Position numbers and translations under genes: made by a program
Notes under the pieces: model-generated
Database searches by the model: none
What the model was told of the DNA's origin: nothing
Seen by the model: only the letters and a program-made list of their open reading frames with translations
Virus record (IMG/VR): IMGVR_UViG_2842447887_000002
Coordinates: 930 to 64,929 of that record
From: a virus
Taxonomy: Duplodnaviria > Caudoviricetes
Reading direction: 5' to 3' (one strand)
DNA length: 64,000 nucleotides
In this document: in pieces, positions 2,307-54,490 of the stretch
Layout: the number at the start of each line of letters is the position of its first letter
Position numbering within the stretch: the stretch's first letter is position 1

Positions 2307-2848
2307 GCGATCTCCCTCGCGCTCTGGAACATGATCGGCTGCTGGTCGCGCGGGATGCGGTGCTGGCCGCGGGCCATCGGGTGTTTGGGAAAACCGTCCT
2401 TCGTCAGGCCGAGGCAGACGAGGTCGACGAGTTGCTGGCGGGCGCGGGTCATCAGCCACTGGTCGCGGCCGCGGTAATCGCCGCCGGCGCCCCAGGCGGC
2501 GAGCATCGGCGTATTCTGGTGGCGGGCGATGATGAAGGCGCGGTCGATAAAATCGTCGCAGCGCGGTCCGATGGAATCCTTGGCCTGCATCATCTCCTTC
2601 GGCGAGGAGGAGCGCCAGGCGTGCAGGTTGACGATCAGGATGCCGCCATAGCCCCAGAGCTTGGCAAACCAGATCAGGGCAAGCACGGTCGGGTCATTGC
2701 GGGTGTGATCGGCGTCCGACGGGTTGAGCATGCAGACGACGAGGAGCGGCTTGCCGGCGTCCCAGACGCGGCGCAGCTCGTCGCGGTAAAGGGTGCAGTC
2801 GGAGATCTCGGCGGCCATCTGCATGGCGGGGAAGAGGTCGAGGGTCAT
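2303..2848 (-). CDS. DUF1643 family protein
   Basis: CMLNPSDADHTRNDPT...YGGILIVNL...AAWG...GFPKHP signature. Confidence 0.85.
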   Translation of the reverse strand: MTLDLFPAMQMAAEISDCTLYRDELRRVWDAGKPLLVVCMLNPSDADHTRNDPTVLALIWFAKLWGYGGILIVNLHAWRSSSPKEMMQAKDSIGPRCDDFIDRAFIIARHQNTPMLAAWGAGGDYRGRDQWLMTRARQQLVDLVCLGLTKDGFPKHPMARGQHRIPRDQQPIMFQSAREIA

Positions 2849-46057: not shown

Positions 46058-46279
46058 ATGAAACTGATTGCCGGATGGCGACGGGTGCTTCTCCGCGCGT
46101 GGAGCATTCGACTGCTGCTCTTGGCCGGCGCTCTGTCCGGCCTCGAATTCGCGCTTCCCTACCTCGACGGATATCTGCCGCTGCCGCCGCGCCTGTTTGC
46201 CGGTCTGTCCGGCCTGACGGTAGCCGCCGCCTTCGTCGCCCGCATCGTTGCACAGAAGGATTTCGACAATGGCAAGTAG
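46058..46279 (+). CDS. Holin
   Basis: 73 aa with two TM segments, WRRVLLRAWSIRL...ARIVAQ; directly upstream of the lysozyme. Confidence 0.75.
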   Translation: MKLIAGWRRVLLRAWSIRLLLLAGALSGLEFALPYLDGYLPLPPRLFAGLSGLTVAAAFVARIVAQKDFDNGK

Positions 46280-46742
46280 ACTGAGAAAGGCCGGCTATGG
46301 CCTCACCGTGGCGGGCGCGCTCGCGGTCGGGTTCGTCGGCGGCAAGGAAGGCGTCAGCACCAAGGCGTACCGCGATATCGTCGGCGTTCCGACCATCTGC
46401 TTCGGGGAGACCCGTGGCGTGAAAATGGGCGATACCGCCACGATGGACGAATGCAAGGCCATGCTCGGCGACGCGCTCGTCGAATTCGAGGGCAATATGC
46501 GGGCCTGCCTCACCAACCCGGACAAGATCCCCGACAAGCCTTATGTGTCCTTCCTGTCGCTGTCCTACAACATCGGCAGCCACGCCTTCTGCGGCTCGAC
46601 GGTCGCACGCAAGGCGAATGCCGGCGATCTCGTCGGCGCTTGCAACGCGATCCTGGCATGGAACAAGGCGGGCGGCCGGGTGATAAACGGCCTGACGCTT
46701 CGCCGGCAGGAAGAGCGCCGCATGTGCCTCGAGGGCGTGTAG
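46269..46742 (+). CDS. Endolysin, GH24 lysozyme (SAR-type N-terminus)
   Basis: EG...AYRDIVGVPTICFGET, SYNIG, WNKAGGRVINGLTLRRQEE. Confidence 0.92.
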   Translation: MASRLRKAGYGLTVAGALAVGFVGGKEGVSTKAYRDIVGVPTICFGETRGVKMGDTATMDECKAMLGDALVEFEGNMRACLTNPDKIPDKPYVSFLSLSYNIGSHAFCGSTVARKANAGDLVGACNAILAWNKAGGRVINGLTLRRQEERRMCLEGV

Positions 46743-48285: not shown

Positions 48286-48507
48286 TCAGGCGCTGTTCCA
48301 AGCCTCGACCGCCCGCCAGGTCTCGTGCTCGAGCTGGCGGGCGGCATCACGAAAGAACCTTTCCATCGTCTCGATGGTGATCTCGTCTCCGCATTTTGCG
48401 CAGGAGATCCGCGCCGTGGCGTCGTGAACCACGCGCGCCTTGCCGCCGCAGCCGCATTTCCTCAGGCGCGGCGTGGTGTCGTCCGTTCTCATCGGCTGCC
48501 ACCGCAT
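48286..48507 (-). CDS. Zn-ribbon protein resembling the Lar restriction-alleviation family
   Basis: LRKCGCGGKA...CAKCG...AVEAWN. Confidence 0.55.
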   Translation of the reverse strand: MRWQPMRTDDTTPRLRKCGCGGKARVVHDATARISCAKCGDEITIETMERFFRDAARQLEHETWRAVEAWNSA

Positions 48508-48779
48508 CACTCTTCCCCCAGATATGACCCAAATCGCAGCTTTCCGGATTTCGCTCCGCATGCGCTGCATTTCAGATGGGGCTCGATCTCGCTGATCAGC
48601 GCCTGGCGAAAAGCCGCTGGCAGGCTGTCCCTCGCGAATTCCCGCATCTCGCCACAGGCGGTGCATTCCGCCATGATATCGAGGTGCGCCGGCGTGACGT
48701 TGAAATAGCCGGGCGTCCAGTCCCTGATCGCGCGAAAGCGGCGCCGCGTCGATTTTCCTGGTGTCTCAAGTTTGGTCAT
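48507..48779 (-). CDS. Small Zn-binding protein, possibly SOS-regulated
   Basis: CTACG ... LKCSACG. Confidence 0.7.
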   Translation of the reverse strand: MTKLETPGKSTRRRFRAIRDWTPGYFNVTPAHLDIMAECTACGEMREFARDSLPAAFRQALISEIEPHLKCSACGAKSGKLRFGSYLGEE

Positions 48780-48892: not shown

Positions 48893-49138
48893 TCACTTGG
48901 CCGCTTCTTTAACGATCTCGGCGATCTCTAAAGGCAGGAAGCCAGATTTAAGCGGGCTCTTGGATGCCAACTCTGTCAGCGCCCACCGTGCGGCGGCGAG
49001 ATGGATCGGCCGGATAGGGCTCTTGCCGCTCTCAATATCCTGGTAGCTGCGAAACGCCATGCCCATGGCTGCCGCGAATTCTGCCTGCGTAAGGGCGGCG
49101 CCGGATCGATAGTATTTCAGGATGTTTTCGCCCGTCAT
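48893..49138 (-). CDS. XRE-family HTH regulator
   Basis: LTQAEFAAAMGMAFRSYQDIESGK. Confidence 0.85.
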   Translation of the reverse strand: MTGENILKYYRSGAALTQAEFAAAMGMAFRSYQDIESGKSPIRPIHLAAARWALTELASKSPLKSGFLPLEIAEIVKEAAK

Positions 49139-49180
49139 GGTCGTCGTCATTGAAGCGATCCCTCAGGTTTGCTATATCTT

Positions 49181-49216
49181 GGGAACCGGAGGGGTGGCTA
49201 GACCCCTCCGGCCCCC
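49181..49216. other. Strong GC hairpin without U-tract between the peptide and XRE genes
   Basis: CCGGAGGGGT-GGCTAG-ACCCCTCCGG (49186-49211), extendable to 15 bp with G-U pairs on the minus strand. Confidence 0.8.
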
Positions 49217-49218
49217 AG

Positions 49219-49287
49219 TTACCGGCCGATGGAGATTGTCAGTCTCCACTTGCCGAACCGGACTTGGAAGGTGAGCTTGACGCTCAT
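49219..49287 (-). CDS. 22-aa peptide MSVKLTFQVRFGKWRLTISIGR
   Basis: Strong GGAGG RBS; ATG at 49287, TAA at 49219-21; alternating hydrophobic beta-hairpin pattern. Confidence 0.65.
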   Translation of the reverse strand: MSVKLTFQVRFGKWRLTISIGR

Positions 49288-49331
49288 GGTAGCCTCCAGT
49301 CCTCCCGAAGCGGGATTGCTTCGGTAAGATT

Positions 49332-49383
49332 GTTATGCACGAAAACCGTGCTTAACGCAAGTGGAAAAGCACGAAAACCGTGT
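49332..49383 (-). promoter_or_regulatory. Promoter with two operator copies for the peptide-XRE unit
   Basis: GCACGAAAACCGTG(C/T) at 49337-51 and 49369-83; minus-strand TTGCGT-N17-CATAAC. Confidence 0.65.
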
Positions 49384-49444
49384 TTATTTTGCCGTCTGGA
49401 GCGATCCGGGCGGCTTTTCTATTTTTCATGTCAGGGTAGTGGCG

Positions 49445-49675
49445 TTAATTGCGCTTGCGGCTGGCGATGATCTTGCGCCGCAGGCGATCGAAGTCGGCGA
49501 TGATATCAATGAGCTCCGGATCCTGCACATCGAGATCGCCAGGAGCAAAGGAAGCTATGATGCGCGCGATGATTTCCGCGGTCATCGACCGGTCATTCGC
49601 CTCGGCCGCCGCTTCAACGCGCTTTTTCAGTTCTTCAGATATTCGTAACCTAAAATATAAGTCGTCTTTCGCCAT
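49445..49675 (-). CDS. Arc/Mnt-family ribbon-helix-helix repressor
   Basis: YFRLRISEELKKRVEAAAEANDRSMTAEIIARI; ATGCCAC repeats upstream (49685-49725). Confidence 0.85.
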   Translation of the reverse strand: MAKDDLYFRLRISEELKKRVEAAAEANDRSMTAEIIARIIASFAPGDLDVQDPELIDIIADFDRLRRKIIASRKRN

Positions 49676-49875
49676 GCCCCACCGATGCCACAAAGAGGGG
49701 TTGACCGATATGCCACCACGATGCCACCAAATGATAATGCTTATCCGAGGTTGAGCGTGGTTAACGAAGCGCATCATCTCCCGATAGTGCAGGCAGGGAT
49801 GAGAAAACGACGCGGCCGGTGCAGGCCCTTGGGCCGGCCGCGTCGGGCGAGGACATGATCTAAGGGAAATGAGAC

Positions 49876-50256: not shown

Positions 50257-50325
50257 GAGTGCGCGCGGCAGAGATAATGAATATGGGTCAATTGCTTTTT
50301 AAGCTGTTGCTGATGTCATGGCGGC

Positions 50326-51378
50326 ATGACAAAGCCGCCTCGCAAGCCCGCCAAGCCGCTGCTCGGCGATGCCGACGCGCCGCTCCGAAGCCGGCCGCGC
50401 CGCCGGCGCGATCCCGCCCAGCCGAACTTGTCCTTCGACCCCATGCCGTCGCGCGTCGATCCGTGCCTGGCGCTATTGAAGCCGCGGCCGCCGAAGGGCC
50501 GGCAGTGGGCTTTCGAGGTGAAATGGGACGGTTACCGCATCGCCGTCCACATCGAACCCTCGGGCGTGCGCATCCTGACGCGCGGCGGCCATGACTGGAC
50601 CGATCGCTTTCCGGCGATCGCGGCCGAGGCAAAGCGCCTTCCGATTTCGACAGCGATATTGGATGGCGAAGCCGTCGTGTTCGACGAGCAGGGCCGGTCA
50701 GACTTCGGGCGGCTGCAACAGTCGCTTGGCGGCCGCGGCGGCAAGCGGATGTCGCGGGAAGCGGTCTTCATGGCGTTCGACCTTCTCTATTTTGACGGCC
50801 ATGACCTCACGGAAACGGAACTCACCGCACGGCGCCATCTCCTCGAGGGGCTGGTGCCTGCCGGCGGCGAGGATGCCATTCGACTGTCCGAGGAGATCGA
50901 GGCGGATGGGGATGTGCTGCTGCGCATCGCCTGCGAGCATGGGCTGGAGGGGATAATCGCGAAGGACCGCAACAGCTCCTATCGCAGCGGGCGGTGGGGC
51001 GACTGGCTGAAGATCAAATGCATCCAGAGCGATGGTTTCGCGATCGTCGGCTACCAGCGCTCAAGCTCGGCGTTCGGGAATATCGGCGCGCTGCTGCTGG
51101 CTGCTCGAAAGGGTGCTGATTTGGTTTACGTCGGATCGGTCGGCACGGGCTTCAAGGCAGACGAGGCAATGAAGCTGCGCGCGATGATGGACAAGCTCAA
51201 GGCTGCCCGGCCTGCGGTCAGATATGCCGGCCGGCGCAAGAACCTTGTCTGGATCAAGCCGACGCTGGTTGCGGAGATCGAATATCGCGCCTGGACGCAT
51301 GACGGAAAGCTGCGGCACGCGTCCTATAAGGGCCTGCGCGATCGGGCGGACAATGCGGCGGTTTATCAGTTGGAGTGA
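50326..51378 (+). CDS. ATP-dependent DNA ligase (stand-alone LigD-type ligase domain)
   Basis: EVKWDGYR, LDGEAV, AFDLL, EGIIAKD, WLKIKC, VGSVGTGF, EIEYRAWT..GKLRH. Confidence 0.92.
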   Translation: MTKPPRKPAKPLLGDADAPLRSRPRRRRDPAQPNLSFDPMPSRVDPCLALLKPRPPKGRQWAFEVKWDGYRIAVHIEPSGVRILTRGGHDWTDRFPAIAAEAKRLPISTAILDGEAVVFDEQGRSDFGRLQQSLGGRGGKRMSREAVFMAFDLLYFDGHDLTETELTARRHLLEGLVPAGGEDAIRLSEEIEADGDVLLRIACEHGLEGIIAKDRNSSYRSGRWGDWLKIKCIQSDGFAIVGYQRSSSAFGNIGALLLAARKGADLVYVGSVGTGFKADEAMKLRAMMDKLKAARPAVRYAGRRKNLVWIKPTLVAEIEYRAWTHDGKLRHASYKGLRDRADNAAVYQLE

Positions 51379-52697
51379 TCCCATCGGAACTTGATGGCTT
51401 CCAGCAGCGCCTGGCGCCGCTTCATCTCCGAACCGTCGCCATAGACCGGCCGACCGAATTCATGGCCCATCAGGTCGGCCTGCATGCGATCTGAGACGCC
51501 GGCGTTCTCGATGCGGTCCTGGAAGGTGTGGCGGAACGAATAGAGTGTGTGCTTGCCGCCGGCCGGCCGCAGGCCTTCCTTCTTCATCATCTTGTTGATC
51601 AGCGCCGAGGCGACATCGGCCTTGTCCTGATAGCGCGGGAAACCATCGGGGTATTGCTTCGCGGCCCATAGGGCGATGCCGACGAGGGGGATGCGGCGGA
51701 TGGAGTGCTCGGTCTTCTGGCGGCGATCGGTGCGCTCGGCGACCTCGACATGCGGCACGTCGTCGTCGAGCCGGATGTCCTGCGGGCGAAGATTGCAGAC
51801 CTCGCCAAGCCGCATGCCGGTTTCGATCATAATGTAGACGATGCAGCGGGCGTCGAGGTTCATTGTCTCCAGCGCGCCGTTGGCGAGGATCCTGGACTGG
51901 ACCCAATCGACCGAGAACGGATGCCGCTTCTTGAGCTTGTTGGCGTTAGTCTCCTTGATGCGGCTCTTCGTCCACACTTCCTTGAAGTTGGTGTGCAGGG
52001 CGTCGTCGATGACGGTCAGCATGCCGAGCATGTCGCTGAAGCTGCGGTTCGCTGTATAGGCCCTCAAGCCTTCCGCCTTGACCTTCTGCGTCCACCAGGT
52101 GCGGTAGCGCAGGACGTCGGCGCGGGTGATCTTGCCGAGTTCGAGATCCGTCAGCTCCTGCTTGGCGTATTCGATGGCCCTCAGGCGCGAGTTCTTGTGC
52201 TTGCGCAGCTGGTCCGGCGACATGCCGGTCATTCCCGCCTCGTTGTGTTCCTCATAGAGCTGCCAGACGTCGCTAAGCCGCGGCGCCGGCTCGCCGGCGG
52301 TGCCCATCACCGCATCGACGATCGTCTCCGACTGATCGAATGCATCTTCGGCGATCGCGATGCGCCGTTCGAACTCGCCGAGGTCGGCATCTGCGACGTC
52401 GGTGGCCGGCTTGTATGTGAAGCCGAGCGACTGGGCGGCCTTCAGGGCAGCCTCGTAGCGCGCGATAGACGAATCCTTGCCCTCGCCGTGCAGCAACGCG
52501 CCCCATAGGGTCTCGAGCGCCTGGTGGACGGCTTCCGCCCGGCTGAGAGCTTCCTTGTGGTTTTTCGTCTTCAGGGATTGTTTGACGTGAACGCGGCCGT
52601 CGAGCGGCACGACCTCGACCGGCACGCGTCTATAGTAGCGGTATATGCCGCTTGTCGGATGCTTGATCACGTATTTCGAGATGTCGTCTGTAGCCAT
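51366..52697 (-). CDS. int: Tyrosine recombinase/integrase
   Basis: YYRRVP N-terminal domain, TGMRLGEV, YSFRHTF, LMGH, VYG. Confidence 0.93.
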   Translation of the reverse strand: MATDDISKYVIKHPTSGIYRYYRRVPVEVVPLDGRVHVKQSLKTKNHKEALSRAEAVHQALETLWGALLHGEGKDSSIARYEAALKAAQSLGFTYKPATDVADADLGEFERRIAIAEDAFDQSETIVDAVMGTAGEPAPRLSDVWQLYEEHNEAGMTGMSPDQLRKHKNSRLRAIEYAKQELTDLELGKITRADVLRYRTWWTQKVKAEGLRAYTANRSFSDMLGMLTVIDDALHTNFKEVWTKSRIKETNANKLKKRHPFSVDWVQSRILANGALETMNLDARCIVYIMIETGMRLGEVCNLRPQDIRLDDDVPHVEVAERTDRRQKTEHSIRRIPLVGIALWAAKQYPDGFPRYQDKADVASALINKMMKKEGLRPAGGKHTLYSFRHTFQDRIENAGVSDRMQADLMGHEFGRPVYGDGSEMKRRQALLEAIKFRWDHSN

Positions 52698-52730
52698 AGG
52701 TCGGGCATCCTGTTGGCTTGCGCGGTACGA

Positions 52731-52765
52731 TGTAGGACAAAATGTATCCCAAAATGTAGCCAAAA
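52731..52765. repeat. Putative integrase arm-type sites
   Basis: TGTAGGACAAAA / TGTATCCCAAAA / TGTAGCCAAAA, 12-bp period, between int and the tRNA. Confidence 0.55.
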
Positions 52766-52877: not shown

Positions 52878-52952
52878 TGGCTCCCCGGGCCGGATTCGAA
52901 CCGGCGACCTGTCGATTAACAGTCGAATGCTCTACCGCTGAGCTACCAGGGA
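52878..52952 (-). tRNA. tRNA-Asn (GTT), prophage attachment target
   Basis: TCCCTGG...CTGTTAA...GGTTCGAATCC...CCA cloverleaf. Confidence 0.97.
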
Positions 52953-54416: not shown

Positions 54417-54490
54417 GGCCTCGTGGCGGAGTGGTGACGCAGAGGACTGCAAATCCTTGTACCCCGGTTCAATTCCGGGCGAGGCCTCCA
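54417..54490 (+). tRNA. tRNA-Cys (GCA), island attachment target
   Basis: GGCCTCG...CTGCAAA...GGTTCAATTCC...GAGGCCTCCA. Confidence 0.97.

Follow-up and report, generated by a model that had tools for sequence, protein, structure and literature searches.

The DNA analysed here is a 64,000-nucleotide stretch (the window) of a 64.9-kb virus record in IMG/VR (IMGVR_UViG_2842447887_000002). At the accessory end of this prophage lies a cassette of ~560 bp, built around an open reading frame (ORF) of only 22 codons, and we found it at about 75 loci from phages, prophages and metagenomes. Comparing these loci in silico, we established the anatomy of the cassette, coding selection on its peptide, the fold of its RNA, the co-variation of its operators with an XRE-family regulator, and the conservation of a promoter and a terminator on the opposite strand. 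The cassette itself is read on the minus strand of the window in the order operators, peptide ORF, GC hairpin and XRE gene. Its elements are as follows:

49391 to 49424, plus strand: antisense-oriented intrinsic terminator, a GC stem followed by a T-run, reported by the terminator scan on the plus strand only
49369 to 49382, no strand assigned: distal operator, a CACG-N5-CGTG palindrome, an exact repeat that co-varies with the XRE across loci
49337 to 49350, no strand assigned: proximal operator, in the spacer of the sense promoter at the edge of the -10
49332 to 49360, minus strand: predicted sense promoter, TTGCGT-N17-CATAAC, from reading the sequence
49360 to 49355, minus strand: sense -35, TTGCGT
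49337 to 49332, minus strand: sense -10, CATAAC
49305 to 49324, minus strand: P1, a hairpin of 7 bp with which the sense mRNA begins, from the fold and compensatory changes
49260 to 49302, minus strand: P2 helices, in which the Shine-Dalgarno (SD) region (GGAC, GGAGG) is paired with codons 6–9 and the AUG lies inside a UGAGC/GCUCA hairpin
49297 to 49293, minus strand: peptide SD, GGAGG, 5 nt ahead of the ATG
49287 to 49219, minus strand: 22-codon peptide ORF, MSVKLTFQVRFGKWRLTISIGR, with its ATG at 49287 and TAA at 49221–49219
49216 to 49181, minus strand: P4, a GC-rich hairpin that begins 2 nt past the stop and has no U-tract
directly 3′ of P4, minus strand: AU-rich stretch
49164 to 49159, minus strand: XRE SD, GAGGGA
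49150 to 48893, minus strand: XRE-family helix-turn-helix (HTH) gene, 85 amino acids (Pfam HTH_3)
49150 to 49177, plus strand: antisense promoter, with -35 TTGAAG (49150–49155) overlapping the XRE ATG, 16 nt, and CTATAT (49172–49177)
49184 to 49424, plus strand: predicted cis-antisense RNA of ~240 nt, deduced from the promoter and terminator

Anatomy and Spread of the Cassette

A first-pass annotation, made from the DNA letters, had described part of this layout, and what it saw proved real. Its two promoter-overlapping repeats, 32 bp apart, are present as exact 14-mers, the proximal one filling the promoter spacer and the distal one sitting just upstream of the sense -35. The strong ribosome binding site and 22-residue micro-ORF are in place, and the hairpin of 10–15 bp without a U-tract is P4, whose stem in the window has 14 pairs, two of them G-U, plus one bulge. 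The downstream gene does encode an XRE HTH protein, of 85 residues by the family-conserved start instead of the 81 proposed. Overlooked were the 5′ hairpin, the helices that occlude SD and AUG, the antisense promoter, and the antisense terminator, which appears on the minus strand as a GC stem with an A-run ahead.

Recurrence confirms a module far beyond chance. IMG/VR was searched with two patterns, one back-translated from the peptide and one for the hairpin, giving 46 distinct cassettes. For metagenomes, the pattern fixed only the last two peptide codons and the hairpin; 29 of the 33 matches were cassettes, and in each of them exactly 22 codons lead from an ATG to the TAA, and the antisense promoter and an XRE gene are present. 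Two loci picked up by XRE similarity (L004 and L005) were set aside as ordinary XRE genes without the module; judged by eye, L005 may be a BrnT/BrnA-type pair. At L094 (about 2336–2770, minus strand), we noted a divergent cassette with a more hydrophobic peptide of 21 residues, which keeps the same type of GC hairpin, the antisense -10 and -35, and the XRE gene. This cassette suggests a wider superfamily than our search patterns could reach.

The sole deposited phage genome that carries the cassette is that of Rhizobium phage RHph_TM3_3_3, a temperate phage with its own S24 CI-type repressor; the phage collection had no other match, and the plasmid collection had none. The RHph_TM3_3_3 copy is 85% identical to that of the window and has a NusG-like gene on one side and the packaging genes on the other, unlike its position in the window, and its micro-ORF is not annotated. 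The two phages have only the cassette and a ligase gene in common (86.6% nucleotide identity between window 50274–51336 and L135 31105–32167), and these are 1 kb apart in the window and 30 kb apart in RHph_TM3_3_3. When flanking ORFs were clustered, the XRE gene was the sole conserved neighbor (45 of the 45 loci with enough sequence), and every other flanking family was restricted to at most eight loci. Because the flanks differ in this way between loci, the cassette is an autonomous accessory moron of temperate Rhizobium phages. Named hosts of XRE homologues are Rhizobium ruizarguesonis and the strain Rhizobium sp. CNPSo 3968, and 401 alphaproteobacterial genomes sampled across the class gave one weak partial match of 38 nt.

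The cassette is annotated nowhere, and its peptide falls below every gene-caller cut-off. Searches for the cassette found no Rfam, protein-family, structure or literature match; at E values up to 10, Rfam returned two sub-threshold chance matches only. In RHph_TM3_3_3, a tRNA gene on the opposite strand (L001 3935–4010, annotated tRNA-Met) abuts the antisense terminator, and an opposite-strand tRNA gene likewise adjoins that terminator in an IMG/VR relative (L002, about 2630–2700). An identity as a tRNA was rejected, since ARAGORN finds no tRNA inside the cassette and the tRNA-Met merely abuts the match.

The Peptide and the Fold of Its Messenger

The micro-ORF is protein coding, and its product is under selection. 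The viral set comprises 37 distinct ORF sequences encoding 32 peptides (37 peptides in all sets together), each ORF spanning 22 codons from ATG to TAA in viral and metagenome loci alike, with the 21-residue peptide of L094 as the divergent case. The ATG, the TAA and a good SD at 5–6 nt spacing are invariant. Variable codons retain T at their second position, giving V/I/L/F/A at residues 3, 7, 11, 16, 18 and 20, and synonymous variants also occur. We scored the quality of the replacements: in frame 0 their BLOSUM62 averaged +0.69, compared with −1.09 and −1.0 in the other frames. Moving the variable columns at random gave a mean of −0.84 (SD 0.24), and none of 2,000 such randomizations reached the observed value. 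Conservation of the reading frame, the check named alongside the original proposal of a peptide, thus came out in its favor, both in the length that is kept and in the conservative replacements. No conserved ORF was found on the antisense strand: codon 20, which varies, is what creates the plus-strand ATG, and the cluster of antisense "ORFs" is conserved DNA read on the reverse strand.

Hydrophobic residues occupy positions 3, 5, 7, 9 and 11 and positions 14, 16, 18 and 20, with a Gly12-Lys13 turn between the two runs, and the opposite face is polar and basic. Judged from this alternation, the peptide has the pattern of an amphipathic beta-hairpin, as had been suggested at first sight, and the periodicity is retained across the selected family sequences. 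It is kept in L060 (MNIKFTIEIRFGKRKLTLSVTL), the most divergent 22-residue member, and in the L094 peptide (MPVISITLRWKSLTITIVLFF) despite a quite different nucleotide sequence. No match to the peptide was found in Pfam, PHROG, NCBIfam, PADLOC or the PDB.

The nucleotides of the ORF are themselves extremely conserved, including the third positions of codons 4–10, and the RNA is strongly structured. Both facts would suit a payload made of RNA, in which either the sense RNA with its structure or the antisense RNA with its CCUCC-type motifs acts in trans and nucleotide constraint alone keeps the ORF open. We regard such a payload as highly improbable: the variable codons keep their T and their conservative replacements, L094 encodes a beta-hairpin-type peptide on very different nucleotides, the start, stop and SD spacing do not vary, and no Rfam family matches.

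To describe the structure of the sense mRNA, we analyzed 45 sequences with RNAalifold and with a structure specified by hand. The consensus fold has 47 pairs, with 96.8% of cells paired and compensatory changes at 15 pairs; none of 500 shuffles matched this support, and slid controls were 35–53% paired. P1 is paired in 99% of cells, with compensatory changes at four of its seven pairs; P4 is paired in 99.7%, with six compensated pairs; and the AUG hairpin is paired in 100%, with two compensatory changes. The SD pairs with codons 6–8, and in six sequences a change of GGAGG to GGAGC is offset by ACC to AGC (Thr6 to Ser). Many of the pairs are G-U, and the consensus fold of the sense strand, at −58 kcal/mol, is favored over that of the antisense strand, at −39 kcal/mol, which indicates that selection acts on the sense RNA. 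The window RNA alone has a minimum free energy of −90.5 kcal/mol (z-score −5.9). A long-range pairing between the 5′ hairpin and the XRE start site, present in the minimum free energy fold of the window, was discarded because it is not kept in the consensus fold.

Modeling predicts that this fold buries the SD and AUG of the peptide and leaves the XRE start open. The predicted unpaired probability is 0.21 for the peptide SD and 0.35 for its AUG, compared with 0.42 and 0.65 for those of the XRE gene, and the XRE start is predicted to be the more open of the two in 39 of 44 loci for the SD and in 40 of 44 for the AUG. The first-pass annotation had offered the hairpin as setting the ratio of peptide to repressor. 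It may do so: the structure of P4 is selected, and predicted accessibility favors translation of the XRE over that of the peptide. We also observed that the GC hairpin differs between cassettes in its loop (A3 columns 142–150) and inner stem, within an invariant outer stem. If the sense and antisense RNAs first meet loop to loop, the variable loop could confer specificity at the RNA level, as in plasmid incompatibility groups.

A leader circuit of the kind found in plasmid R1 (IncFII; CopB/CopA/tap/repA) would account for several of these parts. Antisense-gated translation of the micro-ORF would remodel the RNA near the GC hairpin and so set the synthesis of the XRE as output. The component list is the same, namely a repressed promoter, a short leader ORF (about 22–24 codons), a downstream stem-loop and an antisense RNA directed at the leader, and a ribosome halted at the TAA stands 2 nt from the hairpin and would open its base. 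We nonetheless think a leader circuit unlikely. In R1, tap and repA are translationally coupled over a few nucleotides, whereas here the leader stop neither adjoins nor overlaps a downstream ribosome binding site: 68–75 nt separate the peptide stop from the XRE start, and this gap holds the hairpin and an independent XRE SD that is predicted to be accessible without leader translation. A leader needs neither selected amino acid properties nor a beta-hairpin periodicity, yet both are maintained here even where nucleotides diverge. The supposed output, the XRE, varies while the leader is constant, and it has no visible target besides itself; a circuit without output would not persist in about 75 loci. 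The order differs as well, the repressor lying upstream in R1 and downstream in the cassette, and no replication function is involved here.

Predicted Antisense Transcription and the Diversified Regulator

On the strand opposite the peptide ORF, the reverse complement of a conserved CAATG at the XRE start supplies a TTG, and exactly 16 nt past it all 46 loci have CTATAT, CTACAT or TTATCT. This antisense -10 corresponds, in reverse complement, to the conserved AU-rich stretch that follows P4. The rhizobial sigma-70 consensus is CTTGAC-N17-CTATAT (quoted in PMC2873474), and in its notation the antisense promoter of the window, ATTGAA-N17-CTATAT, matches at 10 of 12 positions. Over 57 full cassettes, the antisense promoter matches at a mean of 8.7 of 12 positions and the sense promoter at 7.3, with the antisense match the higher in 43 cassettes; a match of at least 9 occurs in 32 of the 57 antisense promoters versus 1.1% of random 90-nt windows. 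Indels are seen between P4 and the antisense -10 and never between the -10 and the -35. Two loci have their XRE start codon displaced by 3 nt, and in both the antisense TTG stays in its column.

In 37 of 43 loci, an antisense-oriented terminator is located upstream of the peptide ATG at a distance of 128–140 nt; only 20 of the 43 have a sense-oriented one. Because promoter and terminator are both conserved, we predict from the sequence a cis-antisense RNA of ~240 nt, complementary to the peptide mRNA across P4, the ORF, the SD, P1 and the operator region. A phage parallel is the immI region of P22 (arc-ant, sar), likewise an accessory operon of a phage, in which a small repressor is combined with a short antisense RNA arising inside the operon. 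There, sar targets the ribosome binding site of ant, which encodes a full-size antirepressor, and no micro-ORF is involved.

The XRE protein of the window matches Pfam HTH_3 with 25.5 bits (E = 1.3e-5; gathering cut-off, 23), and precomputed PF01381 is listed on 10 of 10 XRE homologues. The part common to the family is a core of ~80 residues without any feature beyond the XRE fold, and the C-termini vary in length and sequence. Extra C-terminal domains bring the XREs of L009, L013, L044 and L090 to totals of 130–160 residues, the added segment in L009 being CxxC...CxxC and zinc-ribbon-like. The nearest solved relatives are generic and weak (434 Cro and repressor, HipB, Aca2, PezA and HigA2).

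Two operator copies lie 24–33 bp apart in nearly every locus; in RHph_TM3_3_3 the distal one is inverted, with its half-sites retained. The operator is found nowhere else in the 64-kb phage, so the XRE appears to regulate only this cassette; allowing up to two mismatches, its 14-mer has one further match in the window (0.59 expected). Across loci, the half-sites change along with the helix-3 region of the XRE, defining at least six specificity groups:

helix-3 FRSYQDIE or FRTYQDLE: operator of the GCACG-N5-CGTGC type
helix-3 PLRTYEDLE: operator CCACGG-TTT-CCGTGG
helix-3 PLRTYENLE: operator CCACC-AAAAT-GGTGG
helix-3 LRGYQKLE: operator CGAAC-N3-GTTCG
helix-3 SYQDIESGKNP: operator CACG-TATTA-CGTG
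helix-3 RAWSAVE or RAYSDLE: operator GCAG-TTT-CTGC

Paired palindromes that overlap the promoter and co-vary with the recognition region of a putative binding protein suggest the autoregulation that was first proposed. Mean pairwise identity is 0.87 for the ORF nucleotides, 0.78 for the peptide and 0.40 for the XRE, and the same peptide is paired with XREs of different groups (for example, in L003 and L025). We read the constant peptide and its RNA as the payload; the XRE is the variable part.

This pattern bears on two further readings. The first-pass annotation had likened the locus to a type II toxin-antitoxin operon in HigBA order with the toxin replaced by a micro-peptide. As a classical type II pair, the XRE would bind and neutralize the peptide directly and repress the operon. 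The toxin-first order, the following, putatively autoregulating XRE-type HTH protein and the promoter palindromes are shared with HigBA, HicAB and BrnTA, and this layout stands. Nothing, however, indicates protein-protein neutralization of type II: identical peptides accompany unrelated variants of the XRE, which have in common only the HTH core of ~80 residues, with varying C-termini beyond it and no sign of a conserved toxin-binding region. No toxin of known fold (RelE/ParE, HicA and others) was recognized in the peptide by domain match, and the antisense promoter and terminator would be left unexplained. We therefore give the type II pair very little weight, slightly below that of the RNA payload. 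The conserved antisense promoter and terminator together with the occluded SD and AUG point instead to type I-like control at the level of RNA, which HigBA and HicAB lack.

The other reading is a non-toxic operon of the Acr-Aca type, in which an anti-defense or host-modulating peptide would be made in a burst on infection and then shut down by an Aca-like XRE and the antisense RNA. Payload first, a putative HTH autorepressor second, two inverted repeats in the promoter and a mobile unit in accessory-gene slots of phages all agree with such operons. The 26-residue Stp of T4 is a very short phage peptide with an anti-restriction role, and the XRE profile weakly matches Aca2 (E about 8e-4). That similarity is generic, however, since 434 Cro, HipB, PezA and HigA2 score alike, and the XRE is assignable to no Aca family. 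Aca loci conserve the Aca and vary the payload, whereas the cassette does the reverse, and its 22-residue peptide is far below the size of known Acr proteins. Moreover, a buried SD and AUG and a stronger, convergent (predicted) antisense promoter are ill-suited to a burst of synthesis. An Acr-Aca-type operon thus seems to us an outside possibility, on a par with the leader circuit.

A Candidate Silenced Effector and Its Surroundings

Three stacked, predicted negative controls on a 22-residue ORF in a mobile prophage unit amount to the design of a type I system and recall how harmful peptides are usually kept in check in bacteria, which favors a silenced and probably harmful effector. We accordingly prefer, with a little less than even confidence and on what the sequences suggest, a type I-like toxin/antisense unit with a built-in XRE autorepressor. 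Its payload would be the amphipathic, cationic, beta-hairpin-type peptide, kept almost silent. In the first layer of control, the downstream XRE would bind the two palindromic operators and repress the cassette's own promoter. In the second, the 5′ hairpin and the pairing of the peptide SD and AUG with the peptide's own codons 2–9 would restrict translation, while the GC hairpin would close the peptide segment and the XRE start would stay open. In the third, the stronger convergent promoter, whose -35 lies over the XRE start codon, would produce the ~240-nt antisense RNA, fully complementary to the peptide segment and ending at the terminator upstream of the operators. Only once repressor and antisense RNA fall would the peptide be made, and it would then harm the cell. 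The triggers might be loss of the prophage or an infecting phage that shuts off host transcription, giving post-segregational or abortive-infection behavior. In this scheme, we infer that the sense and antisense RNAs are both transcribed, that the operators are targets of the XRE and that the peptide does harm.

Like tisB/istR-1 and hok/sok, the cassette has a very small ORF (well within the range of small proteins under about 60 residues), an SD hidden by intramolecular pairing and a predicted cis-antisense RNA from the stronger promoter, and it resides on mobile elements and prophages. The restriction of translation by a structured toxin mRNA is matched here by covariation-supported SD/AUG helices and low SD accessibility. 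There are differences as well. The extra repressor layer of tisB/istR-1 is LexA, whereas that of the cassette is self-encoded in the same transcript. Neither the peptide nor the RNA is related in sequence to any known type I family, and harm by the peptide is putative.

Several observations weigh against the type I-like unit. Chief among them, the peptide is not a hydrophobic helix: it is amphipathic and cationic with a beta-type periodicity, has five basic residues in 22 and no hydrophobic run of transmembrane length, and thus lacks the character of a hydrophobic or membrane-inserting toxin. Known type I families are defined by small hydrophobic toxins (PMC2887945 and PMC6563280), unlike this peptide. 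The type I-like unit also leaves unexplained why the regulator has diversified alongside an antisense RNA that would stay cross-reactive. The helix occluding the SD is weaker in variants with Phe7 changed to Val, Ile or Leu (one of its pairs is absent from 19 of 45 sequences), and a simple E. coli-type promoter scan flags neither promoter. Finally, the ratio of nonsynonymous to synonymous polymorphism (pN/pS), at 0.46, did not separate frame 0 from frame +1, and for that reason the replacement-quality test was used in its place.

More tentatively still than the type I-like unit itself, we propose that the cassettes could form a so far undescribed hybrid toxin-antitoxin or abortive-infection family of rhizobial phages, in which a 22-residue beta-hairpin micro-toxin is silenced by an antisense RNA common to the family and a self-encoded XRE of at least six non-cross-reacting specificities. 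If so, the XRE-operator split would let co-resident prophages regulate their cassette copies independently. The peptide is among the most conserved features common to otherwise unrelated Rhizobium phages, and as an effector it would be new, very small and of a beta-hairpin type instead of the usual hydrophobic helix. Its control would merge type I logic (antisense RNA and occluded SD) with type II-like logic (an HTH autorepressor) in one transcript. With a promoter pair, a 22-residue ORF, one repressor and natural specificity variants, the cassette offers a compact, testable system for studying how prophages gate harmful micro-proteins and how regulators and operators diversify around a constant payload.

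Elsewhere in the window, the genes around the cassette include the following:

46248 to 46742: lysozyme
50326 to 51378: ATP-dependent ligase
51366 to 52763: integrase with a DUF6538 N-terminal domain, abutting tRNA-Asn
52878 to 52952: tRNA-Asn

The tRNA-Asn is likely the attachment site, and beyond it lies a tRNA-Cys at 54417–54490. Immediately upstream of the cassette, and on its strand, is an Arc-like ribbon-helix-helix gene (49445–49678, minus strand; Pfam Arc, E = 3e-8). It is not kept beside the cassette at other loci, and its resemblance to the P22 immI arrangement is coincidental. Downstream of the XRE gene, two overlapping small Cys-rich ORFs of 90 and 126 residues (48286–48779, minus strand) are preceded by a promoter-like TTGACT-N16-CATATT, and the second of them has a weak match (E = 0.013) to the family of Lar-like restriction-alleviation proteins in PHROG.

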